Shown piece by piece: positions 10,106 to 57,188 of a stretch of DNA of 64,000 nucleotides. The stretch's first letter is position 1, and each line of letters opens with the position of its first letter. The DNA is taken from positions 9,832 to 73,831 of the forward strand of contig JAZLMG010000057.1 of assembly GCA_045598585.1 (NCBI GenBank), in the 5' to 3' direction. The notes beneath the pieces were generated by a model that saw nothing but the letters and a program-made list of their open reading frames with translations, did no database searches and was not told the origin of the DNA. Both the position numbers and the translations under genes were made by a program. Source of the DNA: Kiritimatiellia bacterium. GTDB lineage: Bacteria > Verrucomicrobiota > Kiritimatiellia > RFP12 > UBA1067.

Positions 10106-10123
10106 GTATTATATCATATTTCC
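10106..10123 (-). promoter_or_regulatory. Conserved extended -10 promoter element, copy 1, upstream of the aminopeptidase gene
   Basis: Minus-strand GGAAATATGATATAATAC (TGnTATAAT). The TATAAT ends about 7 nt before ATG at 10100. Confidence 0.5.
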
Positions 10124-10158
10124 CAGTCTTATGGAACAAGGAAATCATTTTCTTGAGT

Positions 10159-10737
10159 TCAGCGGAAGCCCAAGATTTTATGTAGCTGTACCGAAAGGGA
10201 GAAGCCGTCCAATTGGGACAGAACCGATTTAGCAGTAGCGAAATCGATATCCCCCTCATGATCGCAGGGCGAGATATAAAAATCGTCCGCGGCGATTTTC
10301 GCTTTCATCTCGCGGCAGAAAGCAACAATGTCCTCGCTTTCGGCGACAATCCGAACTTCATTAGCCGAAGTAAGTTCGATTACCGAGCCACGCTTCGGAG
10401 ATGTCGCGACATAATCGACAAAGGAAAGCCAATCGGGCGCCTTCGTCCCATTCGTCTCGACCCCTATCCAGTACCCTTCTTTTTTCAAAGCCGCGACCAG
10501 TTCAGGAATGCCCTTTTGGATAGTCGGCTCTCCGCCCGTTAGAATCACGCTTTTGGGCTTGAAGCTCTTGATTTCACTTAAAAGCTCTTCGAGCGAAAGC
10601 GAAAAGCGCTTCGAGAAATCGGTATCGCACCAAGGGCACTTCAAGTTGCAACCGGCGAAGCGTACGAAGACCACAGGGCGACCGGAATTTCTTCCTTCAC
10701 CCTGCAGCGATTCGAATATTTCAACTAACGGATACAC
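10159..10737 (-). CDS. queE: 7-carboxy-7-deazaguanine synthase (radical SAM)
   Basis: 192 aa. LQGEG with a CNLKCPWCDT cysteine cluster and the QueE fold. Confidence 0.85.
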   Translation of the reverse strand: MYPLVEIFESLQGEGRNSGRPVVFVRFAGCNLKCPWCDTDFSKRFSLSLEELLSEIKSFKPKSVILTGGEPTIQKGIPELVAALKKEGYWIGVETNGTKAPDWLSFVDYVATSPKRGSVIELTSANEVRIVAESEDIVAFCREMKAKIAADDFYISPCDHEGDIDFATAKSVLSQLDGFSLSVQLHKILGFR

Positions 10738-10738
10738 G

Positions 10739-12316
10739 TTACTTCGCGGCCTTCAGGGCCTCAATTGCAAGTTCCGCAAAAGGAATCTTGTCACGCGGAT
10801 GAACATCATTCGGAGTGCCCAAGCCCGCAGCAAAAGTGTTCACGAAAATCGCACGCTTTTCTTTCGCGGCCTTTTCCTGCGCGGCGCGGTAAGGTTCCCA
10901 AGGACGATTCATCTTAGGTAAGCCCATCATGATGAAAGGAATATCCTTATCGCCGCGAAGCTCGTCGATAATCGCGAGATTCGTCTCCAGCATGTAATCA
11001 TCGGCCAAGGGAACGTCGGGACGAACGTTCGTCGTCGCGTTCGATTCGCCCTGATACCAGAGAATACCGGTCAAAGGATAGTGGGCGATACGCTTGATGC
11101 CCTCATCGTACATAAGCGAGACGGGCCACCAATACGCCTCTTCGGCCTTGCCCTTACGACGCTGATACTCGCGCTTACACCAAGCGCAAGGGAAGTCGGC
11201 ATTCTTGTCTATCGTATGGCGGTTCGTGGCAATCTTCGCAAGCGTGGGATACTTCTGCGAGCCATCGGGATTGACGGCGCACATCGTCGACTCGCGGAGG
11301 AAAGCCTCGGTCGGAGCACCGCCTGCCGCGACATAGAGAAGCACCACCGACTTTTTCGTCTCAAGCGCGCGGCGAATACCGAAGCTGACGCCGAACGCGC
11401 TGCGCTTCGTGGCGTTCTTGGAAGTGAGCTTGGTCCAGCTGTCGTCATTGAAATCCCAAAGCCAAACATCAAGCTTATCGAGCTGGGCAAGTTCCTTTTG
11501 AGCGCGAGCTTTCTCTTCGGCGCCGTAGCTGAATTCGCCCCAGCCCTTCTGCATATTCGACTGGCCCGCGATAAGCCAAAATTCGATCTTCTTGCCCTTA
11601 AGTTCTTTCGGGGGAACAACGCGCGGCTTGGCAGGTTCGGTCAAAGCTTTGAAGGTAGTTTCGGCAATGATCTTCGCACCGTCGGTGTTCGGATGAATTT
11701 TATCCGCGGCGAAAATACGGTCGCAATCAGGCATCATCGGCTTCTGCATATCGATCGTGCGAGCGTTGAAACGCTTGGCGATCGTTTCGAGATCGTCCTG
11801 CATCAAGAACGCTTCGGGCGAACGATAGAAACGCTGACCTTCGGTCAAAGTCGAAAGCTTCGTCCACATGTAGAACTTCGTTTCCGGATTGACCTTAACA
11901 TAATCGCCTAAGAGTTCCGAATAATCTTCGATGAATTGTCCGCGCTTTCTGCCGCCGACATATTCTTTGATGTATTCGCCGTTATCGTTGATGCCGAGAT
12001 TGCAAATAACGATATCGGGCTTCCACTCGAGAGCGGCCTTATGTTCCTTCATATAACGATAGCCACGCATTTCGGCGCCACGCTTGGAGTCGAGATAAAT
12101 GCCGCGACCCGAGTTGCCGAAATTGCGAACTTCATACTTCCCGGGATACTTCGCATTCAAAAGAAGCTGAAGTTGATTCGGGTAGCAAGTGTTCCCACGA
12201 TCCGGGAGACAATAGCCGAACGTGATCGAGTCGCCGATACAAGCGACTTTAACGGGATCGGCAACGGCGCTTAGCGCCAAGCCGACAAGAGCGACGAGTG
12301 CTAATGATTTTTTCAT
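10739..12316 (-). CDS. Secreted two-domain carbohydrate esterase (SGNH/GDSL hydrolase + SASA/DUF303 sialate-O-acetylesterase-like domain)
   Basis: Signal peptide MKKSLALVALVGLALSA, GDSITFG (GDSL Ser) and a second domain with GQSNMQKGWGE. AGGAGG Shine-Dalgarno. ATG overlaps the thiD TGA (ATGA). Confidence 0.7.
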   Translation of the reverse strand: MKKSLALVALVGLALSAVADPVKVACIGDSITFGYCLPDRGNTCYPNQLQLLLNAKYPGKYEVRNFGNSGRGIYLDSKRGAEMRGYRYMKEHKAALEWKPDIVICNLGINDNGEYIKEYVGGRKRGQFIEDYSELLGDYVKVNPETKFYMWTKLSTLTEGQRFYRSPEAFLMQDDLETIAKRFNARTIDMQKPMMPDCDRIFAADKIHPNTDGAKIIAETTFKALTEPAKPRVVPPKELKGKKIEFWLIAGQSNMQKGWGEFSYGAEEKARAQKELAQLDKLDVWLWDFNDDSWTKLTSKNATKRSAFGVSFGIRRALETKKSVVLLYVAAGGAPTEAFLRESTMCAVNPDGSQKYPTLAKIATNRHTIDKNADFPCAWCKREYQRRKGKAEEAYWWPVSLMYDEGIKRIAHYPLTGILWYQGESNATTNVRPDVPLADDYMLETNLAIIDELRGDKDIPFIMMGLPKMNRPWEPYRAAQEKAAKEKRAIFVNTFAAGLGTPNDVHPRDKIPFAELAIEALKAAK

Positions 12317-13065
12317 TTTAGTCCTCCTAATACACCACAATTTTCACCTACTAAATAAGAAGTCGTAATCGCTTTATGAACGAACGCTTTCGCGCCTTCA
12401 ACCGCATTGACGAGTTCATGCCCTAAAGCGAGTTCGGCGGCAAGAGCTGCCGCGAGCGTGCAGCCCGTACCATGCGTCGAAATCGGATGCTCGATCTTCG
12501 GAAGCTCGAATTCGCGGCGTTCTTTCCCGTCAAAGAGGATATCGATCATCTTCCCGTCTACGCGATGCCCGCCTTTAACGAGCACGGGAACGCCATACTT
12601 ATCATAAAGCGCCTCGGCGCTTCCTCCGAGTTCTTCGGCTTCGGGAAGATTCGGCGTTATCAAAGTAGCGAGCGGAAGAAGCTTTTCCTTGATTCGTTCA
12701 ACCGCCTCTTTCGAAACAAGTCTCGCACCACTCGTCGCGATCATCACGGGATCGATTACTTTCTTGATTTCAGGATGCTTACTTAGACGGTCAGCTACTA
12801 TATCGATAACCTCGATTTCTCCAAGCATTCCCGTCTTCAGCGCCTTGATATTGTAGACGCCCAAGACCGCATCGAGCTGAGCTGCGACGAAATCGGCAGG
12901 AACCGAGTGAATCGCGTAAACGCCGAACGGATTCTGAGCGGTGAGCGCGGCAAAAACGGTTGCACCATGAAGCTTGTAGGCGTGGAAAGCGCGAAGGTCC
13001 GCTTGGACTCCCGCATTCCCGCCCGAATCGCTTCCCGCAATCGTAAGTACCGCCGGCTCGATCAT
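12313..13065 (-). CDS. thiD: Hydroxymethylpyrimidine/phosphomethylpyrimidine kinase
   Basis: 250 aa. GSDSGGNAGVQADLRAF and the ribokinase-like fold typical of ThiD. Confidence 0.85.
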   Translation of the reverse strand: MIEPAVLTIAGSDSGGNAGVQADLRAFHAYKLHGATVFAALTAQNPFGVYAIHSVPADFVAAQLDAVLGVYNIKALKTGMLGEIEVIDIVADRLSKHPEIKKVIDPVMIATSGARLVSKEAVERIKEKLLPLATLITPNLPEAEELGGSAEALYDKYGVPVLVKGGHRVDGKMIDILFDGKERREFELPKIEHPISTHGTGCTLAAALAAELALGHELVNAVEGAKAFVHKAITTSYLVGENCGVLGGLK

Positions 13066-14369
13066 TTCCCTAACTTCTCGGCAAGTTCACGAATACGGCG
13101 CGAAGTGCGAACGGCGCAGAACTGCTTGCCGCACATCGAGCAATGATCGTCGGAGTGAGCTTCGTCGGTAAAAGCGCGCGTCTTGAGCCAACGCGCCTTC
13201 GCTTTCTCGGGATCGAGCGCACACTTGAATTGCTTATCCCAGTCGAAGTCACGACGCGCTTTCGACATTTCGTCATCGATATCGCGAGCGTGAGGAAGCC
13301 CACGTGCGATGTCGCCTGCATGCGCGGCGATCTTATACGCGATGCAACCTTGATGAACTTCTTCGCCATCGGGAAGCCCGAGGTGCTCGGCGGGAGTTAC
13401 ATAGCATAGGAGCGATGCGCCGTAGGTCGCGGCAGCGGTAGCGCCGATCGAAGAGACGATATGATCGTAACCGGGCGCGATATCGGTCGTAACCGGGCCT
13501 AAGACGTAGAAAGGAGCTTTCTTGCAAACTTCCTGCTGACGCTCCATGTTCATCTGAATCTGGTTGAAAGGAACGTGGCCGGGGCCTTCGACCATAACCT
13601 GAACGCCACGAGCGCGGCACTTTTCAACGAGTTCGCCGAGGACATCGAGTTCGCCGAATTGCGCTACATCCGAGGCGTCCGCGAGACAGCCGGGACGAAG
13701 ACCGTCGCCCAAAGAAACGGTAACGTCATGTTCGACCAAGATATCAAGGACTTGATCCCACATCACGTAAAGCGGATTTTCCTTATTATGCTCCATCATC
13801 CACTCGGCCATAATCGCACCGCCGCGCGAGACGATGCCCATGAGACGCTTCATCGCGTCGGGGATGTGCCGAAGCAACAAGCCCGCGTGCAAGGTCATGA
13901 AGTCGACGCCTTGCTCGGCCTGAGCGCGGATTACATCGAGGAGGAAGGTCGGATCCATTTCGGGGATGTCGCCTTCGAGTCGGGAAATCGTCTCGTAAAT
14001 GGGGACCGTCCCCAAGGGTTTGGGGCTCGCGTCGAGCATACCCTGGCGAATCGCCTTGATATCTTCACCGACCGAGAGATCCATTACGAAATCCGCACCC
14101 GCCTTAAGCGCGATTTCGAGCTTTTCAAGTTCATCGCCCTTCCCGGAATGAGTCATCGAACGGCCGAGATTCGCGTTGATCTTCGTCGTGAACATCCGAC
14201 CGACGCCAACCGGGTGACAGTTCTTATGATGAATATTAAGCGGGATAACCGCCTCGCCCGACGCTACCGCCGCGCGTACGGCTTCCGGCTCGAGGCCTTC
14301 GTCCGCCGCGACGATCTTCATCGCCTCGGTGATGATTCCGTTTCTTGCTGCCTGAAGTTGTGTCATCAT
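13062..14369 (-). CDS. thiC: Phosphomethylpyrimidine synthase
   Basis: ThiC radical SAM C-terminal CSMCGKQFCA. Start set at the ATGATG after an AGGGAGGG Shine-Dalgarno that follows the TAA of the upstream gene. Confidence 0.9.
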   Translation of the reverse strand: MMTQLQAARNGIITEAMKIVAADEGLEPEAVRAAVASGEAVIPLNIHHKNCHPVGVGRMFTTKINANLGRSMTHSGKGDELEKLEIALKAGADFVMDLSVGEDIKAIRQGMLDASPKPLGTVPIYETISRLEGDIPEMDPTFLLDVIRAQAEQGVDFMTLHAGLLLRHIPDAMKRLMGIVSRGGAIMAEWMMEHNKENPLYVMWDQVLDILVEHDVTVSLGDGLRPGCLADASDVAQFGELDVLGELVEKCRARGVQVMVEGPGHVPFNQIQMNMERQQEVCKKAPFYVLGPVTTDIAPGYDHIVSSIGATAAATYGASLLCYVTPAEHLGLPDGEEVHQGCIAYKIAAHAGDIARGLPHARDIDDEMSKARRDFDWDKQFKCALDPEKAKARWLKTRAFTDEAHSDDHCSMCGKQFCAVRTSRRIRELAEKLGK

Positions 14370-14377
14370 GCCCTCCC

Positions 14378-15052
14378 TTATCGCTCGAAGTTGCCGGTTT
14401 CCATGTCGTTCAGCCATTTCTGCCGCGATTCTTCATTCGGCGCGACGAGAATGCCACGATATTTGTACGGCACCCAATTGTTTGTCCAAGTCGTATCTCT
14501 GAAAGGTTCGTCGAAAAGCGCTTGATCGGGCATGATATCATCGATCGACCCCATCTTCCCGTCGGGTCCACGCGAATAGAGAATCGGATGACCGGACTCG
14601 AGGCGCTCGTAAAAATAAGGATTTCCCCAAGGATCGTTTACAATGCGCTTACAATAAGGCCCGTTCCAACCGACGACTTTCGGTGTTATGTTGGTAAGCG
14701 CCGCGAGTCCTTCTTCGGTCGAAGGATAGTCCCCGACATGAAACTTATATCGGCCTAACGCAACCGCCAAAGCATCCATCGACTTTCGCGCGTTGATTTG
14801 GGCTTTCGAGATATGGGCTTTTCCACCGCGTCCCGTAGCCGTGAGCACGAGCGAACCGAGAATCATCATTCCCATAATCATCACCAAGTAAAAGATGAAG
14901 CCACGCTTCATCTTCGGGAGACCTCCCGAGAGCATGTCTTTTTTCTTGGCGAATTCGCGACGGATTCGCTCTTTGGCGATTCGCTTCGAATCCGTTTCCT
15001 TCAGCTTCGTTTTAGCCGGGAATTTCGCCTTAAGTCTGTTGTAATCAACCAT
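14378..15052 (-). CDS. Type II secretion GspG-like pseudopilin-domain protein with non-canonical N-terminus
   Basis: DYPSTEEGLAAL and NDPWGNPYFY GspG signatures. The N-terminal helix starts MKRGFIFYLV and lacks the conserved Glu+5. The true start may be MKRGF at 14911. The longer ORF adds a 47-aa basic extension. Confidence 0.6.
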   Translation of the reverse strand: MVDYNRLKAKFPAKTKLKETDSKRIAKERIRREFAKKKDMLSGGLPKMKRGFIFYLVMIMGMMILGSLVLTATGRGGKAHISKAQINARKSMDALAVALGRYKFHVGDYPSTEEGLAALTNITPKVVGWNGPYCKRIVNDPWGNPYFYERLESGHPILYSRGPDGKMGSIDDIMPDQALFDEPFRDTTWTNNWVPYKYRGILVAPNEESRQKWLNDMETGNFER

Positions 15053-16355
15053 CGATTCGTTCCAAAATAAGTTCGTTGGTCGAAGCGGAAATCACGCTTT
15101 CGATTTTGAACGCTTTAAGCGCCTCGGCAGCGGCTTTCTCGAGCCCTTCGGGGCCCGTCGACTTCATCAATGTTGCAAGCGGCGTTCCGACCGTAACCTT
15201 ATCTCCGCGCTTCACATTAAGATCGATACCGGCCTGAGGATCGATCTTATCCCCCGCCTTCTCGCGGCCCGCGCAGAGCATAAAGGCCGCGCGAGCGATC
15301 TTCTCCGCATCGATCTCGGTCACAAACCCCGAGCGCATCGCCTGAATCGTGAACTTGAAAGGACGCTCTTTTCTCAATGCTTCAAAGCGCGAAAGATCGC
15401 CGCCCTGAGCTTCGACCATTTTGACGAACTTCTTGTACGCGGAGCCGTCGGCAAGACGAGCTCTTGCCAATGCGCGAGCTTCATCAAGCGGAATATCAAG
15501 CGAAAGCGAGACCATGAGCGACGAGAACTCCACGCAAAGAGCCGTCACCTTCTCATCGAAGCTCTTTCCGGAGAGGATTTCCAGGGCTTCCTCGACTTCA
15601 TTCGCATTACCAACCGAGCGGCCCAAAGGCGCGGACATGTCGGTTACGAGCGCGGCGGATTTGCGCCCCGCGGCTTTCGCGCCCCCGACGAGCGCTTTCG
15701 CGAGTTCCAGCGCCTCTTCTTTCGTCTTCATGAAAGTGCCCGAGCCGCATTTCACGTCGAATACGAGCGTTCCCGCGCCTTCCGCGAGCTTCTTAGAGAG
15801 AATCGACCCGACAATCAAAGGAATCGAAGCGACAGTACCCGTCACATCACGAAGCGCGTAAAGCTTCTTGTCGGCAGGAGTGATTTCGGCCGTTTGAACG
15901 GTCATCGAAACTCCCGCTTCCTTGACGACTTTTTGGAAATCCTCAAGCGAAAGCGAAGCGTTGTAGCCCGGAATCGTTTCGAGTTTATCGGCCGTGCCGC
16001 CCGTAAGGCCGAGCCCTCGTCCCGTAAGCGACGGAACCGCGACACCGCAAGCTGCAGCGAGCGGTTGAATGATAAGCGAGAGCTTGTCGCCGACGCCTCC
16101 CGTCGAGTGCTTGTCGGCGGTAATCATGTCCCAAGTAAGGCATCTACCCGAATTCTTCATCGCCTCGGTAAGATCGGCCGTTTCGCGCTCGTTCATTCCG
16201 CGGCAACAAATCGCCATCGCCATCGCTGCCATCTGATAATCCGGAATTTCTCCCGAGGTGAAGCCCTCGATGAATTCACGAATTTCAGCCGTCCCAAGCG
16301 CTTTTCCTTCGCGCTTCTTATCCAACAGCAATTTGGCGATCATGGCTTTCTCCAA
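15045..16355 (-). CDS. Pyrimidine-nucleoside (thymidine) phosphorylase
   Basis: 436 aa. HSTGGVGDK phosphate-binding motif and a two-domain Pdp/DeoA architecture. TTG start. Confidence 0.85.
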   Translation of the reverse strand: MEKAMIAKLLLDKKREGKALGTAEIREFIEGFTSGEIPDYQMAAMAMAICCRGMNERETADLTEAMKNSGRCLTWDMITADKHSTGGVGDKLSLIIQPLAAACGVAVPSLTGRGLGLTGGTADKLETIPGYNASLSLEDFQKVVKEAGVSMTVQTAEITPADKKLYALRDVTGTVASIPLIVGSILSKKLAEGAGTLVFDVKCGSGTFMKTKEEALELAKALVGGAKAAGRKSAALVTDMSAPLGRSVGNANEVEEALEILSGKSFDEKVTALCVEFSSLMVSLSLDIPLDEARALARARLADGSAYKKFVKMVEAQGGDLSRFEALRKERPFKFTIQAMRSGFVTEIDAEKIARAAFMLCAGREKAGDKIDPQAGIDLNVKRGDKVTVGTPLATLMKSTGPEGLEKAAAEALKAFKIESVISASTNELILERIDG

Positions 16356-27626: not shown

Positions 27627-28178
27627 TTAGAAAGGCATGAAAACGACGCCGTAAATCGAAGCGGGCTTGCCGCCAACGGCCTTAAGCGCATGCTTGACGA
27701 CGCTGTTGTAGTAAGCCGAGTCGCCGGGCTTCAAAATCGACTTCTCGTTACCGTACGTAAGTTCGATTTCACCCGCGGTGCAGATGATAAGCTCTTCGCC
27801 TTCATGACTCGAGATGTGCTCGGCGCCATCCGCATCGAACTCGATGCGGAAAGGATCCATGTGACGATCGGGTTTGCCGAGCGCGAGCGAGTGAGAAGTA
27901 TAGCCGAACTCGTTCTTGCCATCCTCCGCCTTGATGTCTTCGGCGCGAGTGATGATCGGGTCGGGCTTATACTGGTCGTCCATAAACGTGCCGAGGCGCT
28001 GACCAAGGGCGCGCGAAATCTTCGTAAGTACGCCAAGCGCGGGAAGGACTTCGCCCTTCTCGATCGAATTGATGATCTTCTCATCGACTCCGCACTTCTG
28101 CGAAAGGTCATAGATGCTCATATCGAGCTTTTCACGATATGCGCGAATGCGCTTTCCGACATTGGCTTCTTTATCCAT
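27627..28178 (-). CDS. XRE-family HTH transcriptional regulator with C-terminal cupin domain
   Basis: 183 aa. N-terminal HTH_3 (KRIRAYREKLDMSIYDLSQKCGV) and a C-terminal cupin fold. AGGAG Shine-Dalgarno 9 nt before ATG. Confidence 0.8.
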   Translation of the reverse strand: MDKEANVGKRIRAYREKLDMSIYDLSQKCGVDEKIINSIEKGEVLPALGVLTKISRALGQRLGTFMDDQYKPDPIITRAEDIKAEDGKNEFGYTSHSLALGKPDRHMDPFRIEFDADGAEHISSHEGEELIICTAGEIELTYGNEKSILKPGDSAYYNSVVKHALKAVGGKPASIYGVVFMPF

Positions 28179-28202: not shown

Positions 28203-28220
28203 GTATTATACCATATTTCC
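28203..28220 (-). promoter_or_regulatory. Conserved extended -10 promoter element, copy 2, upstream of the XRE-cupin regulator gene
   Basis: Minus-strand GGAAATATGGTATAATAC, with TTGTAG 17 nt upstream as a -35 candidate. 25-nt leader with AGGAG Shine-Dalgarno. Confidence 0.5.
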
Positions 28221-43456: not shown

Positions 43457-43879
43457 TTATTTCACCAAATATTCGATAGCTTCCGAGTAAGAATTAAAGC
43501 CCTTACCCGAGAAAGTCTTTTCGGCGACCATGCCGACATAAGAAACGCGGCGGAATTCTTCGCGATTCTTCGGCTCGGTCAAATGAACTTCGATAACGCG
43601 CGCTTTAACGGCCTTGATCGCGTCAAGAATCGCAACGGAAGTGTGAGTATAGGCGGCGGCATTAAGAACGATAGCGTCGAAAACGCCGCGAGACTCTTGA
43701 ATCCAATCGACGAGGACGCCCTCGTGATTGGTCTGACGGCATTCGACCTCCGCTCCGACCTTGTCAGCCGTCTCTTTAAGAAACGCCTTAAGGTCGGCAT
43801 AGGTACCCTTGCCGTATAAGTCCGGCTCACGAAGCCCGAGAAGATTCAGGTTCGGTCCGTTCAGTACAAGAATTTTCAT
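43457..43879 (-). CDS. aroQ: Type II 3-dehydroquinate dehydratase
   Basis: MKILVLNGPNLNLLGLREPDLYG and the DHquinase II fold. AAGGAAG Shine-Dalgarno. Confidence 0.9.
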   Translation of the reverse strand: MKILVLNGPNLNLLGLREPDLYGKGTYADLKAFLKETADKVGAEVECRQTNHEGVLVDWIQESRGVFDAIVLNAAAYTHTSVAILDAIKAVKARVIEVHLTEPKNREEFRRVSYVGMVAEKTFSGKGFNSYSEAIEYLVK

Positions 43880-43901: not shown

Positions 43902-43919
43902 GTATTATATCATATTTCC
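43902..43919 (-). promoter_or_regulatory. Conserved extended -10 promoter element, copy 3, for aroQ, overlapping the leuB stop codon
   Basis: Minus-strand GGAAATATGATATAATAC. The leuB codons GAA-ATA-TGA (E-I-stop) are part of the element. 22-nt leader to the aroQ ATG. Confidence 0.5.
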
Positions 43920-45450: not shown

Positions 45451-45493
45451 AATTAGTTTTGAAGTTAGAAGTTAAAGTGTAAAGTGATGGAGA

Positions 45494-48373: not shown

Positions 48374-48407
48374 ATTTGACTTCCCTCCAGTATTGATAAA
48401 AGAAATC

Positions 48408-48434
48408 GGCCTCGCCTTTTTAAGGGGCGGGGCC
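48408..48434 (-). terminator. Candidate attenuator terminator in the leuA leader
   Basis: Minus-strand GGCCCCGCC, loop CCTTAAAAA, then GGCGAGGCC (9-bp GC stem with one mismatch), followed by GATTTCTTTTAT about 60 nt upstream of the leuA ATG. Confidence 0.55.
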
Positions 48435-48464
48435 GAATTTTAAGCGTTCTCTTTTTTGCTTCGC

Positions 48465-48533
48465 TTAAAGGCGTCCCGCCCCGCTCGTAAGGAGAAGGTT
48501 AAGGAGGCCAAGAAGAAGAAGCGAATTATTCAA
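48465..48533 (-). CDS. Candidate leucine-rich leader peptide (22 aa, TTG start) of a leu operon attenuator
   Basis: TTG AAT AAT TCG CTT CTT CTT CTT GGC CTC CTT AAC CTT CTC CTT ACG AGC GGG GCG GGA CGC CTT TAA encodes (M)NNSLLLLGLLNLLLTSGAGRL with 10 Leu codons. GAAGG Shine-Dalgarno 8 nt upstream. The last codons overlap the anti-terminator segment GGGGCGGG. Confidence 0.45.
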   Translation of the reverse strand: MNNSLLLLGLLNLLLTSGAGRL

Positions 48534-48554
48534 GCTAAACGCCTTCAGTAAAAA

Positions 48555-48965
48555 TTACCAACGGGATTCACGACGGGGACCACGATCGCCGAAATCACGA
48601 TCGCCACCGAAGCCACCACGATCACCACCGCGGAAACCACCACGGGGGCCACCGAAGCCACGACCACCGCCGAAGCCGCCACGACCACCGCGGAAACCAC
48701 CACGATCGCCACGCTCTTCACGGGGCTTGGGCTGCGACTCATTGACACGGACCGTACGGCCGTCAATTTCATGTCCGTTCAGCGCGTCAATCGCGGCCTG
48801 CGCCTGAGTGGCGTCGGGCATCGTGACGAAGCCGAATCCTTTGCTGCGACCGGTCATGCGATCGGTGACAACGCGAACGGCGGTAACTTCGCCGAAAGCG
48901 GCGAAAGCCGCCTTGAGACCATCGTCGGTCGTCGCGTAAGCGAGGTTACCAACATAGATTTCCAT
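48555..48965 (-). CDS. RRM-domain RNA-binding protein with Gly/Arg-rich (RGG) tail
   Basis: RNP-2 IYVGNL and RNP-1 KGFGFVTM, then GGFRGGRGGFGGGRGFGG repeats. Confidence 0.85.
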   Translation of the reverse strand: MEIYVGNLAYATTDDGLKAAFAAFGEVTAVRVVTDRMTGRSKGFGFVTMPDATQAQAAIDALNGHEIDGRTVRVNESQPKPREERGDRGGFRGGRGGFGGGRGFGGPRGGFRGGDRGGFGGDRDFGDRGPRRESRW

Positions 48966-49037: not shown

Positions 49038-49056
49038 ATATTTTATCAATTTTCCC
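49038..49056 (-). promoter_or_regulatory. Degenerate copy 4 of the conserved promoter element, upstream of the RRM gene
   Basis: Minus-strand GGGAAAATTGATAAAATAT (14 of 18 positions match; -10 TAAAAT). About 70 nt upstream of the RRM ATG. A CCCTTG/CAAGGG hairpin abuts it. Confidence 0.3.
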
Positions 49057-49087
49057 TTGCTCTCGTCAAGGGGAGAATTCAACTTTC

Positions 49088-49573
49088 TTACGCGCTCCTC
49101 ATCATCGCCTTTTCGGGGCAGGTGTAAGGATCCGTATGTTTCGTGCAGTTAATGCAGCCCGTATAGAGCTTGTGCATAATCTGAGTTTTCGGGATTTCCT
49201 TAAAGCCGAGTGCGGCGAAGAACTCCGGCGTAAAGGTCAAAACCACGATTTCCTTTGGATGAATAACCTTCACGCGCGAGGCAACGGCCTCGACCAAGAG
49301 TTTCCCGACTCCTCGACCTCTAAACGCGCTCTTCACCGCAAGCGACTGAAGCTCGACCGTAGCATTCTCCGGCGAGCCGATTTCAGGATGAACCTGATAT
49401 GTCGCAATACCGACCATTTCTCCTTCCATTTCGGCGATGAGGAAACGATCGATGTTCTCGACGATATTGCCCATCGAGCGCGGCACCAAGCGATCCTTAT
49501 TAAGATCGATTATCGCAAAGATCTTTTCAGCGTCTTTTAGCGCCGCAGCTCGAATGGTTGCAGTTTCGTTCAT
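49088..49573 (-). CDS. GNAT-family N-acetyltransferase
   Basis: 161 aa. Acetyl-CoA-binding RGRGVGKLL motif. C-terminal Cys cluster CINCTKHTDPYTCPE. Confidence 0.75.
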   Translation of the reverse strand: MNETATIRAAALKDAEKIFAIIDLNKDRLVPRSMGNIVENIDRFLIAEMEGEMVGIATYQVHPEIGSPENATVELQSLAVKSAFRGRGVGKLLVEAVASRVKVIHPKEIVVLTFTPEFFAALGFKEIPKTQIMHKLYTGCINCTKHTDPYTCPEKAMMRSA

Positions 49574-50764: not shown

Positions 50765-50766
50765 GA

Positions 50767-51378
50767 TTACGAACCGGGATGGACAGGATGACCGCCCGCC
50801 TTGCACATCGGGCACTCTTCGGCGGTCCAAGTCTCGGGCGTCATCTGCATAAGCGAGAACATCGGAATATCACCGAACGTGACCTTGCCGGACGAACGAT
50901 CGACAAGAAGAACAACCGCCGCGACTTCGCAGCCCGCCGCCTTGACGAGGTCGATAGTTTCCTGTACGCGCCCTCCCTTCGTGACGACATCCTCAGCGAC
51001 GACATAACGTTCACCGGGATTAAGCTTGAAGCGGCGCATCGCTAGAATCGTGTTGGGCTTACCCGTAGCATCGACACCATCGCCCTGAACTTTCTCGGCG
51101 AAGACACACTTCGTATCGAACGCACGAGCGACTTCGTGACCGACGAGAATGCCGCCGACCGCAGGCGAGATAACGCCATCGATCTTGCCGATATCGCAGC
51201 CCGCTTTCATCTTCTCGACAACCGCGTCACAAAGCTTCGCGGCGATACGCGGATAACGAAGAACGTTCGCGCACTGGAAATAGCGGTTCGAGTGGAGCTT
51301 CGATCGGAGTTCGAAGTGGCCCTCCAAGAGCGCGTCCGTGGACTTAAAAGCCTCTAAAACTTCATCCTGAGTCATCAT
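50767..51378 (-). CDS. pyrE: Phosphoribosyltransferase, probable orotate phosphoribosyltransferase
   Basis: 203 aa type-I PRTase with PRPP-binding loop VVAEDVVTKGGRV. Assignment to OPRTase is by overall similarity. Confidence 0.65.
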   Translation of the reverse strand: MMTQDEVLEAFKSTDALLEGHFELRSKLHSNRYFQCANVLRYPRIAAKLCDAVVEKMKAGCDIGKIDGVISPAVGGILVGHEVARAFDTKCVFAEKVQGDGVDATGKPNTILAMRRFKLNPGERYVVAEDVVTKGGRVQETIDLVKAAGCEVAAVVLLVDRSSGKVTFGDIPMFSLMQMTPETWTAEECPMCKAGGHPVHPGS

Positions 51379-51390
51379 TGTTTTTATTCC

Positions 51391-51861
51391 TTATTTGAGT
51401 TTCAGTAAATCATTGTCCCCAAAGAACTTCTCGTTTTCAACGGGAGCCATCTTAACTTTCTTTGGCGTCTCGGCCGCAAGCGAAGGCAAAATAATCGGAA
51501 CATTGCTAAGCGTCGACGAAAAGGAGCGGGAGCTCACATGAACAATAGGATCTTCAATCGTAACGGAGGTATCAAGCTCCGGTAAATTCTCCAACGAGAG
51601 ATCGATTTCGACCCCTTTCTCGCTGAGATTCGAGGTCTGCCACGTACTACGCGCCCTACGAATAGCTTCGCGCTCTTCTTCTTCGCTTAAGAACACTAGC
51701 GAAGCAAACGACCGCGTTACTTCTTTTTTCGGAGAGAAGTTATAGCCAATGGCTTTATACGGGAAGACACTCATAATTCCAAACGGAACGAGCATCGCTG
51801 CCAAAAACGACAAGAATTCACTTCTAAGAGAGCGTTCAGGTTTTGTGAAAGCAGGACTCAT
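51391..51861 (-). CDS. Hypothetical membrane-anchored protein encoded immediately after exbD (possible TonB/TolA-position partner)
   Basis: 156 aa. One TM helix (FLSFLAAMLVPFGIMSVF), an acidic SEEEEREA segment and no Pro-rich or TonB_C motifs. Start overlaps the exbD stop. Confidence 0.45.
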   Translation of the reverse strand: MSPAFTKPERSLRSEFLSFLAAMLVPFGIMSVFPYKAIGYNFSPKKEVTRSFASLVFLSEEEEREAIRRARSTWQTSNLSEKGVEIDLSLENLPELDTSVTIEDPIVHVSSRSFSSTLSNVPIILPSLAAETPKKVKMAPVENEKFFGDNDLLKLK

Positions 51862-52271
51862 TCACCGGCCTTTTCTATTCTACGCTCTGCCAAAAGCAAC
51901 TTTTCAATCCCGCTCTTCTTGGCAATTGTCGTGATTTGCATGAGCTCACCGGCGGTAACTCGCTTATCCGATAGCAGCAAAAGCGAAGGATTTGTCGCCT
52001 TTTTCGCGACTTCTTCCAGGTGCGATTGAAATTTCTCCAGTGATTCTTCGTCCGATAGCGAATATCGCGAATCATCAAAGAATACGAGCGTGTCTCTCGC
52101 GGCAGGAAAGACAATAGCAACCAAATCCGTAACGGCGCCTTCATCATTACCAAAAGACGGTAAATCAAAAAGCTGTCCTTTGGCGATAGTGAACTTTCCA
52201 CCCACCAACCACATCATCCCGAAGAGGATGATTACGGAAAGCCAAGCGGAAATGATCGACAGAGTTTTCAC
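51858..52271 (-). CDS. exbD: ExbD/TolR-family biopolymer transport protein
   Basis: 137 aa. N-terminal TM helix and periplasmic ExbD fold. Confidence 0.75.
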   Translation of the reverse strand: MKTLSIISAWLSVIILFGMMWLVGGKFTIAKGQLFDLPSFGNDEGAVTDLVAIVFPAARDTLVFFDDSRYSLSDEESLEKFQSHLEEVAKKATNPSLLLLSDKRVTAGELMQITTIAKKSGIEKLLLAERRIEKAGE

Positions 52272-52873
52272 TTCTTCGCTCCGAAGTAATTGACAATCTG
52301 TATTGCCGCAGCATCAATACCGCCGACGATACGATTCATTCGATTGCGAAGCTGTGCGGACATAACCAAAACGGGAATCATCACGCCAAGTCCCAACGCC
52401 GTAGAAACAAGAGCGGATAGCGTCGCATTCATCAAATCCGCACGCGCCACGACCTCTTGCCCCTCAACGAGCATAATCGCCTTTATAAATCCAAGTATCG
52501 TCCCAAAAAGTCCGAGAATAGGTGCAATCTCTCCGATAGTGGACAAAACCGAAAGACGTCGAGCGAGACGGCTGGATTCCGCACGCTTCTGAGAGTCGAC
52601 AGCTTCTTTCAAACTGCGTTCGGACGCCTCGCGATTACGAATCGCCGTAGCGACGATATTCGCGACCGGAGCGGACGTATCTTCACATATCGATAACGCC
52701 TCTTCGACATTGCCCTGATCAAGAATATTAGTTGCCCCGTTAACGAAATCTTGCCAGTCAATCTGGCTACGACGCAGTTCCAACAAGCGCTCAAAGTAAA
52801 CCACAACTGCCGCGATTCCCAGCGCAATCAACAACCAAAAAACCGGTTCTTTGGCGATAAGTAACGGGATCAT
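52268..52873 (-). CDS. exbB: MotA/TolQ/ExbB proton-channel family protein
   Basis: 201 aa, 3 TM helices and the conserved C-terminal TM2/TM3 region (LSTIGEIAPILGLFGTILG). Confidence 0.8.
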   Translation of the reverse strand: MIPLLIAKEPVFWLLIALGIAAVVVYFERLLELRRSQIDWQDFVNGATNILDQGNVEEALSICEDTSAPVANIVATAIRNREASERSLKEAVDSQKRAESSRLARRLSVLSTIGEIAPILGLFGTILGFIKAIMLVEGQEVVARADLMNATLSALVSTALGLGVMIPVLVMSAQLRNRMNRIVGGIDAAAIQIVNYFGAKK

Positions 52874-54855
52874 AAAAACTTACCTTTCTTCTCTAATCGT
52901 TCGATCTGCTTTTCGGCCTCTTTAGCGGAGGGAATGTCGCTCGTTACGACAAGCGTCAACACCTTGATCGCTTGCCCATCACGACCTGACGCTTCCAATT
53001 CATCAGCCATATGAAACGCAGCCCGAGAAAAAGACGCACACGCCTCATCATCGAATTTGATACCTTTCTTGATACCATCGTGATAGGCCAACAAGACATT
53101 CGCGTAATAAAGTCCCATCGCTTCATCTTTCCGCTTCATTTTCTCAAGCGTACGCGCGATCTTGTATTCGATTACGATTTTCATCGAGGAAGATAACTCC
53201 GTACCGTTGCGAATTTCTCGATATGTACTCAGCGCCTCATCATAACGAAGACCGTTATCCGCCCCCAAGGCAAATAGCGCATCGGCGCGAAGCATTTTCG
53301 CATGCAGACGCAATTCCGGCGTAGAGCCTTCAATCAACGCTACTCGTTCCAAAACGAGAACCGCCTCATCAAAACGCGCCTCCTGAATCAAAGCATCGCC
53401 TTGAGTTTCTATAGCGATAGCCAACGCAGGCGAGTTCGGATATTTGGAAATAAGTTCACTCGCATCATTAATCGCCTTCTTGTACTCGGAAGCTTTGAAA
53501 GCCGCGCGAGATGCCCACGCCATCGCATACGGAGCTTCTTCCATATTCGGAGCTTCCGCAGCATATTTAAGAAAAAGAGATTCGGCTTCCTTCCAATTGC
53601 CACGATTATAAATGCTTTTTGCCAACCATAAAAGCGCATCCGTTCTCACTTTCTCGTCACGACTTTCTTCTGATATGCGTCTTGCCAACGCTTCAGCGTC
53701 AGAATCACGTCCTTGACCATACAAGCATAGCACGCGAAAATACCCCATCTTATCGGCAAGATCATAATCCAGCTTCGCGATTTCAATAAAGATATCTTCC
53801 GCTTCTTGAAAGCGATAAGAATGAAAAGCTTCTCGGCCGGAAGATTCAAGATCGCGAATCTTCACCAACGTATTAAGGCGCTTGGCCGCCTCAGTGGCTC
53901 CATAATTCTCGGAAATACTGCGATACTTCGCCATCGCATCGGTTCCTCGTCCGGAAGATGAGAGCGCATCACCCGCCTTTAATATGGCTATCGCTTTTAC
54001 TTCAGGATCATCCGAAAGCTCTTCCACGCGATTGAAGTCCTGCACGGCTTCATTATATTTGCCAAGCTTATAATAAGCCCAACCGCGACCTTCTATAAGT
54101 TCGGCATCACCGGCCAATTTAGGCCAAATTTCCTGAGCTTCGATGTAACGCTTTAGCGCGGCGCTCCACTCTCCACGATCAAGATGCGTCTTGGCAAGTT
54201 GCAAATACGCGCTATCCGCCCCTTCCACATCCGGAGAATCTTTGACGATTTCAAGGATTTTAGCCGAAGAGGGTTTAAACAATTTAGCGTCTTTGAGATC
54301 ATTCACCGCTAATCTGAGCGCCGCTACACGCTTAATCGCCGCGCTCGCCTCGCCGGAAACGGCCATTTCACGAAAAATCTCGAGTGCCGCATTTTCCTTG
54401 TCCAACTCTAAAAGGATATGTGCCTTGATCATCTTGGAAATCGGATCTTCGGCCTTTGACTCGATCAAGAGTTCCAACGCTTCTTCTTTATGACCGAGTT
54501 TTAGTTCGATTTCGCTCTTGATTCTCGCTACAGAGCGAATATTCTCCTCATCGAGGAATTTGACATTTTTCAGCAATTCTTCGGCTTGGGAATGTTCACC
54601 TAGCTTTAATAAAGCCGTAGCTTGATACAAACGGAAGTTTTCGCCTTCGGGATAGCCCCATTCGCTCAGCTTGCTAAGAACCTCTGCCCAATTGGTTTCT
54701 TTTGCATAGCTTTCCAATACGATAAGACGAGCTTCTTCACTATCATCTGCAAGAACATTGTTGCGCGCGATTTCCCAAAGTCCATCGCGAAGCGCCGTTT
54801 TGGCGACGTCGATGTCGGCAAATAGCAGAAAGCTCGAAAGGAGCGCGAAAATCAA
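52870..54855 (-). CDS. Large tetratricopeptide-repeat (TPR) protein with N-terminal signal-like segment
   Basis: Multiple TPR units throughout. Start placed at the TTG encoding (M)IFALLSSFLLFA, with GGGAGG 6 nt upstream, overlapping the era TGA (TTGA). The longer ORF would overlap era by 57 nt. Confidence 0.65.
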   Translation of the reverse strand: MIFALLSSFLLFADIDVAKTALRDGLWEIARNNVLADDSEEARLIVLESYAKETNWAEVLSKLSEWGYPEGENFRLYQATALLKLGEHSQAEELLKNVKFLDEENIRSVARIKSEIELKLGHKEEALELLIESKAEDPISKMIKAHILLELDKENAALEIFREMAVSGEASAAIKRVAALRLAVNDLKDAKLFKPSSAKILEIVKDSPDVEGADSAYLQLAKTHLDRGEWSAALKRYIEAQEIWPKLAGDAELIEGRGWAYYKLGKYNEAVQDFNRVEELSDDPEVKAIAILKAGDALSSSGRGTDAMAKYRSISENYGATEAAKRLNTLVKIRDLESSGREAFHSYRFQEAEDIFIEIAKLDYDLADKMGYFRVLCLYGQGRDSDAEALARRISEESRDEKVRTDALLWLAKSIYNRGNWKEAESLFLKYAAEAPNMEEAPYAMAWASRAAFKASEYKKAINDASELISKYPNSPALAIAIETQGDALIQEARFDEAVLVLERVALIEGSTPELRLHAKMLRADALFALGADNGLRYDEALSTYREIRNGTELSSSMKIVIEYKIARTLEKMKRKDEAMGLYYANVLLAYHDGIKKGIKFDDEACASFSRAAFHMADELEASGRDGQAIKVLTLVVTSDIPSAKEAEKQIERLEKKGKFL

Positions 54856-55793
54856 ATCTCGCCTCCCATATAGCCCATCTCGGTGAGGAGCTTTTTGTTC
54901 TTCATCCAATTAGGTTCGACCTGAACCCAAAGTTCAAGCGCAACCTTCACGCCGAAGATATCCTTAAGCTCGCGTTCGGCACACTTACGAACGTACTTGA
55001 TCGTTTCCGCGCCCTTGCCGATTACGATCGGCTTTTGGCTCGGACGATTGACGAGAATATCGACTTCGACATCCCAGCGCCCCGAATCTTCCTTGATGTT
55101 CTTGACCAAAATCCCCATCTCGTGCGGGACTTCCTGGTGCATCTTGGCGAGGTACTTTTCGCGAATCGAGTCGGCTATCGTCATCTTCCTCGGATAGTCG
55201 GTCACGATATCTTCGTCGAAAAGCATTTCGCCTTCTTCCGCCAAATCGAACAAGGTATCGAGGACTTGATTCGCGCCGCCCTCAGTCGTCGAAATCGCCT
55301 TTACCCAAATCGGTTCGACGATCTTCTTTTCTTCCCCTTCACCATGGTTCTTTACCTGCAAAGCTTCATGCTTTGCTTCTTCCCACGCGTCGTGAAACAT
55401 CGACTCGAAAAACTGCGCTTTGTCGGCCTTGTTGAGCACGAAGACGACCTTTTCGCTGCGCTCTTTGGCGACGCGCGCCATCCAGCCCGTATCTTCCATT
55501 TGCGGAGCTGAAGCCGCATCGAAAACGACGCAAAGAATATCGGTTCCCGCGGCAGAACGGCGCGCCATGCGATTCAGGATCTTGCCGAGTTCTCCGACCG
55601 CCTTATGAAGGCCGGGAGTATCGAGGAGGACGAGCTGACCGCGCGGGTCGGCGACAATGCCGCGGATCGTATTGCGCGTCGTTTGCTCGACGGGGGATAC
55701 GATCGAGACCTTTTCGCCGACTAAGCGATTCATCAAGGTCGACTTACCCGCGTTCGTGCGTCCGACAATACCTACAATCGCAACCTTCGCCAT
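54852..55793 (-). CDS. era: GTPase Era
   Basis: G1 GRTNAGKST, G3 DTPG, G4 NKAD and a C-terminal KH domain. Confidence 0.9.
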   Translation of the reverse strand: MAKVAIVGIVGRTNAGKSTLMNRLVGEKVSIVSPVEQTTRNTIRGIVADPRGQLVLLDTPGLHKAVGELGKILNRMARRSAAGTDILCVVFDAASAPQMEDTGWMARVAKERSEKVVFVLNKADKAQFFESMFHDAWEEAKHEALQVKNHGEGEEKKIVEPIWVKAISTTEGGANQVLDTLFDLAEEGEMLFDEDIVTDYPRKMTIADSIREKYLAKMHQEVPHEMGILVKNIKEDSGRWDVEVDILVNRPSQKPIVIGKGAETIKYVRKCAERELKDIFGVKVALELWVQVEPNWMKNKKLLTEMGYMGGEI

Positions 55794-56288
55794 TTATTTC
55801 GCTTCCTTTTTCGCTTTAACCTGAATCGCGAGCCCCTTCAAATCCTCAGGGCGCACAATAGTCACGCCGTTGGGATTCTCACATATAAGCTTGCCCGGTC
55901 CCTTAACAACTATTACAGCGTTTTTCCCTTCAACCGGACGAATCTTCTTAAGCGTAATGGTGTGGTTATCCGGAATAAGCGTAACTACACCATCAATCTC
56001 AACATACGCAAGGTGATAAGGATCTTCAACATACTGCGACCAATCCGCTGTTGCACCCAATGTAGTTCTTCCGGAGAATACAATCTTCGATTGCGCATAA
56101 CGAAGCTTAATGGCCTCTGATCCCGAAAGCTTCATGGAGACATTATAAAACATCCCCGTAGCCGTTCCGAAATTCGTAAGCTGAATCGCATCGTCATTAA
56201 GAACTCCGGTATACTCATGATAATGAGTAGAAGAATCTCCAGGCGTCGGATTGAGAGAAAGAGCCGCGGCTAGAAGTAAGGCGAACAT
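55794..56288 (-). CDS. Hypothetical secreted protein
   Basis: 164 aa with a signal-peptide-like N-terminus (MFALLLAAALSL). No family recognised. Start overlaps the dapA stop (TGATG). Confidence 0.5.
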   Translation of the reverse strand: MFALLLAAALSLNPTPGDSSTHYHEYTGVLNDDAIQLTNFGTATGMFYNVSMKLSGSEAIKLRYAQSKIVFSGRTTLGATADWSQYVEDPYHLAYVEIDGVVTLIPDNHTITLKKIRPVEGKNAVIVVKGPGKLICENPNGVTIVRPEDLKGLAIQVKAKKEAK

Positions 56289-57163
56289 CAGAGGAGTCCG
56301 AGGTCCTTAAGAGTTTTGCTCATAATCTCGAGATTCTTGTCCGTCGTCTCGCAGAGAGGAAGGCGGAAGACTCGCTCAATCTTACCCTGGAGGGCGAGTG
56401 CTTCCTTGACCATAACGGGGTTCGTATCGATGAAGAGATTATGGAACAAGGGATAGAGCTTCGCATGCGCTTTACCCGCGGCCTTGAAGTCGCCCGAAAG
56501 CGCCAAGCGAATCATATCGCTCATTTCCTTCGGGATGACGTTCGAAGCGACGGAAATGACGCCTTCCGCGCCGACCGAAATCATCGGAATCGCGAGAGAG
56601 TCGTCGCCCGAGAGGACCGTAAAGTCGGGGCACATGTTCTTGATCGCCGAGACGCGCTCGACCGAGCCCGCAGCTTCCTTGATCGCGATGACGTTTTCGT
56701 GCGCGGCAAGACGCTTCACGACATCGAGCGGAATTTCCTTCCCCGCGCGGCCGGGCACATTGTAAAGAACGACGGGTAGCCCCAAATCGGCAAGCGTCGC
56801 GAAGTGACGATAAAGTCCTTCGGCGTTCGGCTTGTTGTAGTAGGGCGTAACCTGCAAGCAAGCGTCCGAGCCGCCCATCGAAATCGCTGCCTTGGTGAGG
56901 TCGATAGCTTCCTGGGTCGAGTTGGCGCCCGTACCCGCGATGATTTTGACCTTGCCTTGAGCGAACTCGATCGTCTTTTCGATGACCTTGTGATGCTCAG
57001 CGTGATCGAGAGTCGGCGACTCGCCGGTCGTACCGACGGAACAAATACCTTCAACTCCGCCCGCGACCTGTTCTTCGACGAGCGCTTTGAGTTTACCGTA
57101 ATCGACACTCCCGTCCTTCGCGAACGGAGTGACTAAAGCTGTAATCGTGCCATTAAGTTTCAT
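56288..57163 (-). CDS. dapA: 4-hydroxy-tetrahydrodipicolinate synthase
   Basis: TALVTPF N-terminus, a GSVDY-type motif and the catalytic Lys region of DapA. Confidence 0.9.
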   Translation of the reverse strand: MKLNGTITALVTPFAKDGSVDYGKLKALVEEQVAGGVEGICSVGTTGESPTLDHAEHHKVIEKTIEFAQGKVKIIAGTGANSTQEAIDLTKAAISMGGSDACLQVTPYYNKPNAEGLYRHFATLADLGLPVVLYNVPGRAGKEIPLDVVKRLAAHENVIAIKEAAGSVERVSAIKNMCPDFTVLSGDDSLAIPMISVGAEGVISVASNVIPKEMSDMIRLALSGDFKAAGKAHAKLYPLFHNLFIDTNPVMVKEALALQGKIERVFRLPLCETTDKNLEIMSKTLKDLGLL

Positions 57164-57169
57164 AACATT

Positions 57170-57188
57170 GATATTATATCATATTTCC
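57170..57188 (-). promoter_or_regulatory. Conserved extended -10 promoter element, copy 5, upstream of dapA
   Basis: Minus-strand GGAAATATGATATAATATC. The TATAAT ends about 9 nt before the dapA ATG, which would give a near-leaderless transcript. Confidence 0.5.

Follow-up and report, generated by a model that had tools for sequence, protein, structure and literature searches.

A 64,000-nucleotide (nt) stretch of contig JAZLMG010000057.1 (the window, meaning the whole stretch at its full length; GC content ~53%) carries genes on the minus strand only from position 6538 to its end at 64000, an array of more than 57 kb. Upstream of start codons in this window recurs a 17-nt motif, GGAAATATGRTATAATA, which is the subject of this analysis. 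The original prediction, an earlier reading of the same DNA, had placed five copies ahead of minus-strand start codons, four of them essentially identical and one degenerate, and had seen a related element in the guaB promoter. Motif matching confirms these positions. GGAAATATGRTATAATA has four exact matches, all on the minus strand (10107-10123, 28204-28220, 43903-43919, and 57172-57188), and two copies with 3 mismatches, one at 49039-49055 on the minus strand (GGAAAATTGATAAAATA) and one ahead of guaB at 329-345 on the plus strand (GGAAAAAGAGTATAATA). The six sites, which are argued below to be promoters, are given here with their scores against a position weight matrix (PWM); promoter assignments, leaders, and transcription starts are predictions throughout.

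10106..10123, minus strand: predicted promoter of the M18 aminopeptidase gene; exact motif, 31.9 bits; no Shine-Dalgarno site
10123-10119, 10118-10117, 10116-10115, and 10113-10108, minus strand: its GGAAA, T-17/A-16, TG, and TATAAT, respectively
10098..10100, minus strand: ATG of the M18 aminopeptidase gene, 7 nt after TATAAT and predicted to lie at most 1 nt from the transcription start
28203..28220, minus strand: predicted promoter of the XRE-HTH/cupin regulator gene (HTH_3 + Cupin_2); exact motif (G variant, TGG), 32.3 bits
28210-28205, minus strand: its TATAAT; predicted leader of ~20 nt with the Shine-Dalgarno sequence AGGAG; ATG at 28178
43902..43919, minus strand: predicted promoter of aroQ (DHquinase_II, with an Iso_dh domain upstream, by Pfam); exact motif, 31.9 bits
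43909-43904, minus strand: its TATAAT; predicted leader of ~18 nt with the Shine-Dalgarno sequence AAGGAAG; ATG at 43879
57171..57188, minus strand: predicted promoter of dapA; exact motif, 33.4 bits; no Shine-Dalgarno site
57178-57173, minus strand: its TATAAT; ATG at 57163-57161, 9 nt past the hexamer; predicted leader of 0-3 nt
57202-57197, minus strand: weak -35 of dapA, TTGCCG, with an 18-nt spacer
49038..49069, minus strand: degenerate copy ahead of the RRM-protein gene; 18.6 bits; predicted leader of ~65 nt
49069-49064, minus strand: full -35 of the RRM copy, TTGACG, after CCCC; 18-nt spacer with GGAAAATTG; TAAAAT at 49045-49040
316..346, plus strand: predicted promoter of guaB; 15.8 bits; TATAAT at 339-344; ATG at 384
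316-321, plus strand: -35 of guaB, TTGCTT; 17-nt spacer with GGAAAAAGAG and no TG

The gene names agree with the Pfam domains found (M18 aminopeptidase, HTH_3 with cupin, type II dehydroquinase, RRM, and IMPDH), and by the same criterion the upstream neighbors of the motif-bearing genes are radical-SAM (queE-like), glycosyltransferase, leuB, zinc-ribbon, and GNAT genes. The XRE-cupin promoter is placed in a 45-nt gap downstream of the glycosyltransferase gene. At aroQ, the promoter overlaps the coding end of the gene before it, as the leuB stop codon TGA (43912-43910, minus strand) is made up of the TG of the extended -10 element and the next A. The ATG follows the last T of TATAAT after 7 nt at the M18 peptidase gene, 9 at dapA, 24 at aroQ, and 26 at the XRE-cupin gene; at guaB the distance from the hexamer is 39 nt, and the RRM copy lies ~72 nt upstream of its gene. 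The distances given in the original prediction were correct within 1-2 nt. The M18 start codon agrees both with the start of the Pfam M18 domain (residue 22) and with the N-terminus of an 80% identical orthologue (L172).

The original prediction had proposed a genome-wide count of the motif against shuffled controls, a record of its position relative to start codons, and a search for it in related genomes. In the window, the four exact and two degenerate copies compare with a mean of 0.15 matches at ≤3 mismatches to GGAAATATGRTATAATA (maximum 1) in 100 dinucleotide-preserving shuffles. The hexamer TATAAT occurs 15 times, and the five intergenic occurrences are exactly the motif sites that carry it, the sixth (the RRM copy) having TAAAAT. 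A looser pattern, GGAAA-N5-TANNNT, also matches these six sites and no others in the window, while the shuffled sequences hold a mean of 1.8 matches and 0/100 reach 6. Each of the six lies between genes and has the orientation of the gene that follows. When they are aligned over ±55 nt, the only invariant columns are those of GGAAA and TA.AATA, and the flanks are unrelated. TG is present at -15/-14 in the four exact copies and the RRM copy, and guaB has AG in its place. The T-17/A-16 ahead of it gives TATG in all four exact copies, which fits TRTG, the "-16 region" motif that Voskuil and Chambliss reportedly described in B. subtilis. As read from the sequence, the match to a -35 hexamer is 2-3/6 at the peptidase, XRE, and aroQ copies and 4/6 at the dapA copy. 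Scans of the window with Rfam and for transfer RNA (tRNA) genes returned no RNA family and no tRNA gene, so that the motif is not part of a known RNA.

These window data bear on the view that the copies are remnants of a mobile or repeated sequence (REP-like, MITE-like, or a promoter cassette spread by recombination), or that AT-rich sequence recurred by chance. Four identical 17-mers inside 47 kb could be taken in this sense, as could the near-identical modules of ~40 nt found in two relatives (H07613 and H07617, see below), yet the flanks become unrelated directly outside the 17-18 nt and no terminal repeats are present, which bears out the original claim that these are not copies of a mobile repeat. 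None of the 100 shuffles reaches the observed count, all copies are oriented and positioned toward a downstream start codon, and the orthologous dapA and guaB promoters of relatives keep their position while varying at -22 to -16, as would a selected site and not a transposed copy. A mobile or chance origin is hardly credible.

Relatives of the organism were identified through its proteins. Over two adjacent genes, the window proteins share 63% identity with those of the Kiritimatiellae rumen metagenome-assembled genome (MAG) RGIG6845 (L036), and one window protein is 81% identical to a protein of MAG H07617 (L029). An identical DapA was found on one 14-kb Logan contig only. For motif counts across the clade, 80 metagenome contigs selected by DapA identity (74-85%), and therefore independently of the motif, stand in for the organism's own genome (705 kb, GC 62%). 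In these contigs, TGNTATAAT occurs in 113 distinct contexts, where ~4 are expected from composition, an enrichment of ~28-fold that amounts to ~1 site per 6 kb. TG stands at -15/-14 in 113/168 (67%) of the distinct TATAAT contexts, where composition expects ~6%. A start codon, counted only if it opens an open reading frame (ORF) of at least 80 codons, follows 6-11 nt past the hexamer at 60/113 (53%) of the TGNTATAAT sites and at 6.6% of random positions; 7 nt is the most frequent distance, and ATG accounts for 53 of the 60 close starts. At the scorable sites with a more distant start codon, a Shine-Dalgarno-like sequence is present in 23 of 29. The quality of the -35 region in the clade sites is barely above that of shuffled upstream sequence.

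The exact 17-mer was also searched in one genome per species over 185,579 species, a scan that returned at least 117 loci and gives no genome-wide counts. Most of these are single promoter-like sites in low-GC Firmicutes, where such matches are to be expected, since the TRTG/-10 consensus of Gram-positive bacteria consists of TATG and TATAAT. About 18 of the at least 117 loci listed are in high-GC (0.54-0.66) MAGs, several of which have 2-3 matches per genome; they are labeled Kiritimatiellae/Kiritimatiellia or Verrucomicrobia, or belong to three oddly labeled MAGs (H07613, H07617, and L030) with the same promoter style. TATAAT hexamers in these loci that the search had not picked also bear the upstream part, gAAATATGr (GAAAATATGG, CAGAATATGG, CGAAATATGC, and GGGAATATGA). 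Many sites in relatives have a CCCCC-TTGACA-like -35 module at 17-18 nt spacing, as does the RRM copy of the window (ccccTTGACG), whose CCCC-TTGAC upstream module is also found in the relatives L036, L108, L030, and L003.

Some side observations concern these relatives. The records L009, L023, L028 ("Anaerovoracaceae bacterium H07613"), and L030 ("uncultured Clostridium sp.") have a GC content of 56-62% and promoters of the CCCCC/GGGGG-TTGA...GGAAATATGG style of the Planctomycetes-Verrucomicrobia-Chlamydiae (PVC) group, like H07617, and their Firmicutes labels look doubtful. In H07613 and H07617, near-identical promoter modules of ~40 nt (GGGGGGTTGAnnGTTGGGCGGAAATATGGTATAATATGCGGCG) precede different genes (L009 6327, L023 3150, L028 3397, and L082 7482). 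These are longer than the polymerase should need and could be a promoter cassette or include an added regulator site.

That the motif is a signal for transcription is indicated by tRNA genes. In the Kiritimatiellae MAGs L003, L081, and L108, the first tRNA of tRNA-Leu/Thr, Thr/His, and Leu/Glu operons follows the 17-mer after 18-22 nt, and in a Poribacteria genome a tRNA-Leu gene follows it after 16 nt, so that the motif-to-tRNA distance across L003, L081, L108, and L058 is 16-22 nt. As tRNA genes are untranslated, readings of the motif at the level of translation are ruled out. One such reading would have the motif act in RNA as GGAAAU-AUG-AUA-UAA, that is, as a weak Shine-Dalgarno sequence with a two-codon mini-ORF, from which ribosomes on read-through polycistronic RNA would reinitiate at the next gene, or alternatively as an RNA processing site. 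The motif does hold an in-frame ATG-RTA-TAA (read from the sequence), and the A or T found at -16 in the clade gives ATG or TTG; however, an ATG...TAA arises automatically from W (A or T) at -16 followed by TGnTATAAT, and T-7 and A-6, which lie outside the mini-ORF, are equally conserved. The peptidase and dapA genes have no Shine-Dalgarno sites of their own, and as no terminators were recognized ahead of the sites in the scanned 43-58 kb region, read-through RNA bearing the motif probably exists. On the other hand, 2/4 exact copies precede genes with a proper Shine-Dalgarno site, a GGA only 3 nt from the AUG is poorly spaced for that function, and Rfam finds no RNA family. Together with the tRNA operons, these points make an RNA-level role very improbable.

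The interpretation that best accommodates these data is that the motif represents near-consensus extended -10 promoters of the housekeeping sigma70-family RNA polymerase in an uncultured Kiritimatiellae-type (PVC) bacterium of gut or rumen, to which we give a rough probability of 0.8. The tRNA operons, the enrichment of TGNTATAAT in relatives chosen without regard to the motif, the sharp peak of start codons 6-11 nt past the hexamer, and the orthologue pattern described below all support the original proposal of TGnTATAAT extended -10 promoters at the starts of transcription units. The steps of recognition can be sketched from established sigma70 biology. Sigma region 2 would bind TATAAT (-12 to -7), and sigma region 3.0 would bind TG (-15/-14), aided by the T-17/A-16 of a TRTG-type -16 region; the -35 hexamer would be largely dispensable. 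Transcription would start ~7 nt past the hexamer. Promoters of this moderately GC-rich lineage are proposed to stay very close to consensus, which would account for an identical 17-mer at four unrelated genes.

Sigma70 promoters normally start transcription where the A of the AUG falls at a 7-nt distance. The spacing of 6-11 nt fits the peptidase (7) and dapA (9) genes and not XRE (26), aroQ (24), guaB (39), or RRM (~72). The peptidase and dapA genes both start with ATG and have no GGAG-like sequence between the -10 and the ATG, while the predicted leaders of XRE-cupin, aroQ, RRM, and guaB all contain a Shine-Dalgarno site. The M18 mRNA would thus begin at the A of the AUG and that of dapA would carry only 0-3 nt of leader, both being translated without a Shine-Dalgarno interaction. 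The peptidase and dapA mRNAs are probably leaderless or nearly so, a point that the original prediction had missed, and judging from their spacing about half of the TGNTATAAT promoters of the clade appear to make leaderless mRNAs.

Orthologous genes have either a close promoter or a Shine-Dalgarno site, and rarely both, which is the pattern expected if transcription from the promoter begins at the start codon or close to it. Among 74 distinct upstream regions of orthologous dapA genes, 31 have TATA[AC]T 5-12 nt before the ATG, and a Shine-Dalgarno-like sequence is found in 1/31 of these vs. 24/43 of the regions without a close -10. The 43 divide into 9 with a -10 at 25-33 nt plus a Shine-Dalgarno sequence, 15 with the Shine-Dalgarno sequence only, and 19 with neither. 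The position of the promoter upstream of dapA is conserved in relatives. A nucleoside phosphorylase gene, which is operon-internal in the window (15045-16342) with GGAGA upstream, has an orthologue in L029 that starts 6 nt after AGAATATGGTATAAT. Similarly, the M18 peptidase orthologue in L172 has the same N-terminus with GGAGG upstream and no promoter. The position of the guaB promoter is kept in L161, which has the exact 17-mer where the window has GGAAAAAGAGTATAATA, and in L186, where TTTGATATAAT is similarly spaced from the guaB ATG.

Two candidate comparisons for the peptidase promoter were set aside. L172 is not a footprint of this promoter, given its different gene context and its Shine-Dalgarno sequence, and it supports the start codon only; nor is L036 an orthologue of the promoter, since the queE-like gene has a different neighbor there. 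As separate observations, in L172 (102-2344) the M18 gene lies directly upstream of dapA, which has its own close promoter; in the window M18 and dapA are 46 kb apart, yet the exact 17-mer is present at each. In L029 (5490-5600) two consensus promoters stand back-to-back in divergent orientation, each with an ATG 6-7 nt after TATAAT; judged by this spacing, both divergent genes would be leaderless, with a shared control region of ~90 bp. In the leuC-leuD gap of the window (45451-45493, minus strand), the leuD leader (ctccatcactttacactttaacttctaacttcaaaactaatt) lacks any G as well as a Shine-Dalgarno sequence, and a similar G-free repeat (ctttcaac) precedes dapA in L121 (7848-7922). Such G-free leaders may serve Shine-Dalgarno-independent initiation in the lineage.

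The original prediction had held that GGAAATA, immediately upstream of the TGnTATAAT core, is conserved far beyond what sigma70 needs. This stands for GGAAA (-22 to -18), while the TA (-17/-16) belongs to the known TRTG -16 region. GGAAA is invariant in 6/6 window sites, even at guaB, which lacks TG, and at the RRM gene, where the -10 is imperfect. The clade logo (113 sites) shows W at -19, -18, and -16, T-17 (84%), TG, G/A at -13, TATAAT, A-6 (68%), and T-5 (54%). At -16, T (54%) and A (35%) are both frequent, the purine rule of TRTG being relaxed to W. G accounts for only 44% at -22 and only 38% at -21, which indicates that what the clade has in common is the ATATG part, as a TRTG-like -16 region, and not GGAAA. 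Identity over -22 to -16 is 3.26/7 within contigs vs. 2.83/7 between them (permutation p = 0.0035), a difference that a few duplicated sequences may inflate, and contigs have their own preference here, AAATA in some and TTTT in others. GGAAA is a genome-specific spacer preference. The original prediction had offered several options for GGAAATA: a discriminator or UP-like element, a regulator site, or a lineage-specific sigma preference. Lying at -22 to -16, inside the spacer, it can be neither a discriminator (-6 to -1) nor an UP element, an A/T-rich block upstream of the -35 (about -40 to -60) that the alpha C-terminal domains contact. The window and clade alignments show no conservation from -40 to -60, and downstream of the hexamer only A-6 (usually T-5) is conserved. 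Among the options, a lineage-specific preference of the polymerase or sigma factor fits best.

The tight conservation of GGAAA in the window, which exceeds that of the clade logo, could also be explained if the 17-mer were the operator of a dedicated regulator, with GGAAATA as a half-site over an ordinary -10, or the promoter of an alternative sigma factor, and the genes its regulon. One copy precedes the XRE-HTH/cupin gene, which could then regulate itself, and the ~40-nt modules of H07613 and H07617 would suit a regulated promoter. The motif also includes a 9-bp palindrome, ATATGATAT (read from the sequence), but this is broken in the G variant (ATATGGTAT). The targets are functionally unrelated (a peptidase, a regulator, aroQ, dapA, guaB, and an RRM protein, with tRNA operons in relatives), the register to the -10 is fixed, and promoters in the same MAGs that had not been selected carry gAAATATGr, i.e., a general consensus. 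Against an alternative sigma factor in particular, TGnTATAAT is the typical signature of group 1 (housekeeping) sigma factors, and GGAAAT at 4 nt from the -10 is unable to act as the -35 for any sigma factor. A dedicated regulator or alternative sigma factor is accordingly unlikely.

Within the housekeeping-promoter interpretation, GGAAA may be, by conjecture, a DNA-shape or contact element that the polymerase senses through the beta' zipper, being at the position of the Z-element, or through the N-terminal end of sigma region 3. Yuzenkova et al. (2011; PMC3173786) described the Z-element as a part of the spacer, at -22 to -18, that core RNA polymerase senses with its beta' zipper; it works with a strong -10 and can substitute for the -35 (PMC3173786). 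The known examples, AACCT and AACAT, have a "loose" consensus and effects below 2-fold, and AAATT 4 bp upstream of the -10 has been cited as Z-like (PMC3173786). A bolder proposal is that GGAAA is a true sequence-specific Z-type element that stands in for the -35 in this PVC lineage and has coevolved with the polymerase separately in each genome (A-tract GGAAATA vs. T-tract GATTTT); this is a possibility that we hold to be doubtful.

Five points weigh against the interpretation as it stands, or against this extension of it. Conservation of GGAAA at 6/6 sites is tighter than any known polymerase requirement, and sigma70 recognition alone does not explain it. Across sites, the match to GGAAA shows no trade-off with the quality of the -35 (Spearman 0.02), which gives no support to the replacement of the -35 by GGAAA. 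The known Z-elements AACCT and AACAT differ from it in sequence. Spacing statistics and comparative context are what the start positions and the promoter activity are deduced from, and the placement of the lineage is drawn from protein identity to MAGs rather than from marker-gene phylogeny.

The distribution of the sites within the minus-strand array is consistent with internal promoters. The original prediction had them exactly where the array needs promoters, and for gaps of at least 45 nt the motif does fill every one except two, namely 7477-7522, which has a Shine-Dalgarno sequence only, and the 181-nt RRM-leuA gap. In the scanned 43-58 kb region, no intrinsic terminators were recognized ahead of the promoters at the gaps, and terminator-like sites number 17 vs. 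19.5 in shuffled sequence. Transcription from upstream genes therefore likely runs on into the units, which are not sealed; the sites would act as internal promoters that add to read-through transcription and would probably not bound closed operons. The operon partition originally proposed holds only as an approximation, and its RRM-leu unit is weakened by the RRM-leuA gap (48376-48556, minus strand). There, a GC-rich hairpin (GGCCCCGCC...GGCGAGGCC) is followed by the U-run AUUUCUUUU just upstream of the leuA Shine-Dalgarno site; the gap has a minimum free energy of -56.5 kcal/mol (z = -2.05) and contains neither the motif nor an Rfam family. From its predicted fold, this hairpin could be a terminator or a leucine-type attenuator. 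Weaker promoters that depart from the consensus are possible inside the array, and termination in the lineage may rely on something other than intrinsic hairpins.

One further PWM match, CGATTTATGGTATACTAA at 63385-63402 (minus strand; TATACT, 11.5 bits), lies ~150 nt upstream of plsY and would be either an internal promoter or a chance match. It was taken as non-significant, as it falls inside a glycosyltransferase gene (extent taken from the gene calls of L118) and scores near the maximum of the shuffles.

To our knowledge, hardly any Kiritimatiellae of gut and rumen have been cultured and none has had its transcription starts mapped, and a search of a limited collection of papers found no description of Kiritimatiellae promoters. 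A consensus as sharp as this one lets transcription-unit starts and true start codons be predicted from sequence in Kiritimatiellae MAGs, which is useful for leaderless genes, as these are often mis-started by gene callers that rely on the Shine-Dalgarno sequence. The promoters would also be ready-made strong parts if the group becomes tractable.

Compared with known systems, the sites resemble extended -10/TRTG promoters, in that TG stands one base before a perfect TATAAT, the preceding bases give TATG, and three of the four exact copies have a weak -35 or none. They differ from them in that conservation extends to GGAAA (-22 to -18) and to A-6 (usually T-5), and adherence to the consensus is far tighter here than in E. 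coli or Bacillus. The extended -10 class itself has been described (PMC3173786). The short spacing likewise has counterparts in the leaderless promoters of Actinobacteria, Deinococcus, and Akkermansia muciniphila, which have a -10 ~7 nt from the AUG and no Shine-Dalgarno sequence (PMC3160421, PMC3898074, PMC4782308); a strong preference for AUG is shared with these, and in both cases the type makes up a substantial share of promoters (53% of the clade TGNTATAAT sites). Cappable-seq in Akkermansia (Verrucomicrobia) showed -35 plus TATAAT-like motifs and 10% leaderless transcription starts (PMC4782308). The leaderless promoters of high-GC Actinobacteria and Deinococcus have a loose TAnnnT (PMC3160421), in contrast to the full TGnTATAAT kept here, where leaderless status is predicted from spacing only.

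Chlamydia, which also belongs to the PVC group, offers a parallel by analogy to the W-rich -19 to -16 found across the clade. An A/T-rich spacer was reportedly found by Tan and colleagues in 1998 to matter for the cognate chlamydial polymerase. The spacers of Chlamydia sigma66 promoters are A/T-rich just upstream of the -10 (12% C and 17% G; PMC2743672). However, chlamydial promoters have not been reported as extended -10 or near-consensus, and the genome is AT-rich, so that the contrast with the background is weaker.

Extended -10 promoters with a -16 region and leaderless promoters are thus both well known, and the genome-specific GGAAA is the one unexplained feature. Like the Z-element, GGAAA lies exactly at -22 to -18 in promoters without a good -35, and the motif has AAAT at -20 to -17; unlike the known Z-elements, GGAAA has a different sequence, is invariant in the window, and shows no trade-off with the -35. 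Since it occupies the Z-element position and varies by genome, it provides a cheap test case for whether spacer contacts can gain sequence specificity and take over from the -35. If GGAAA proved to be of the Z type, these Kiritimatiellae would have the first promoter system of the "-10/TG/Z" kind found in nature whose Z consensus is sharply defined.

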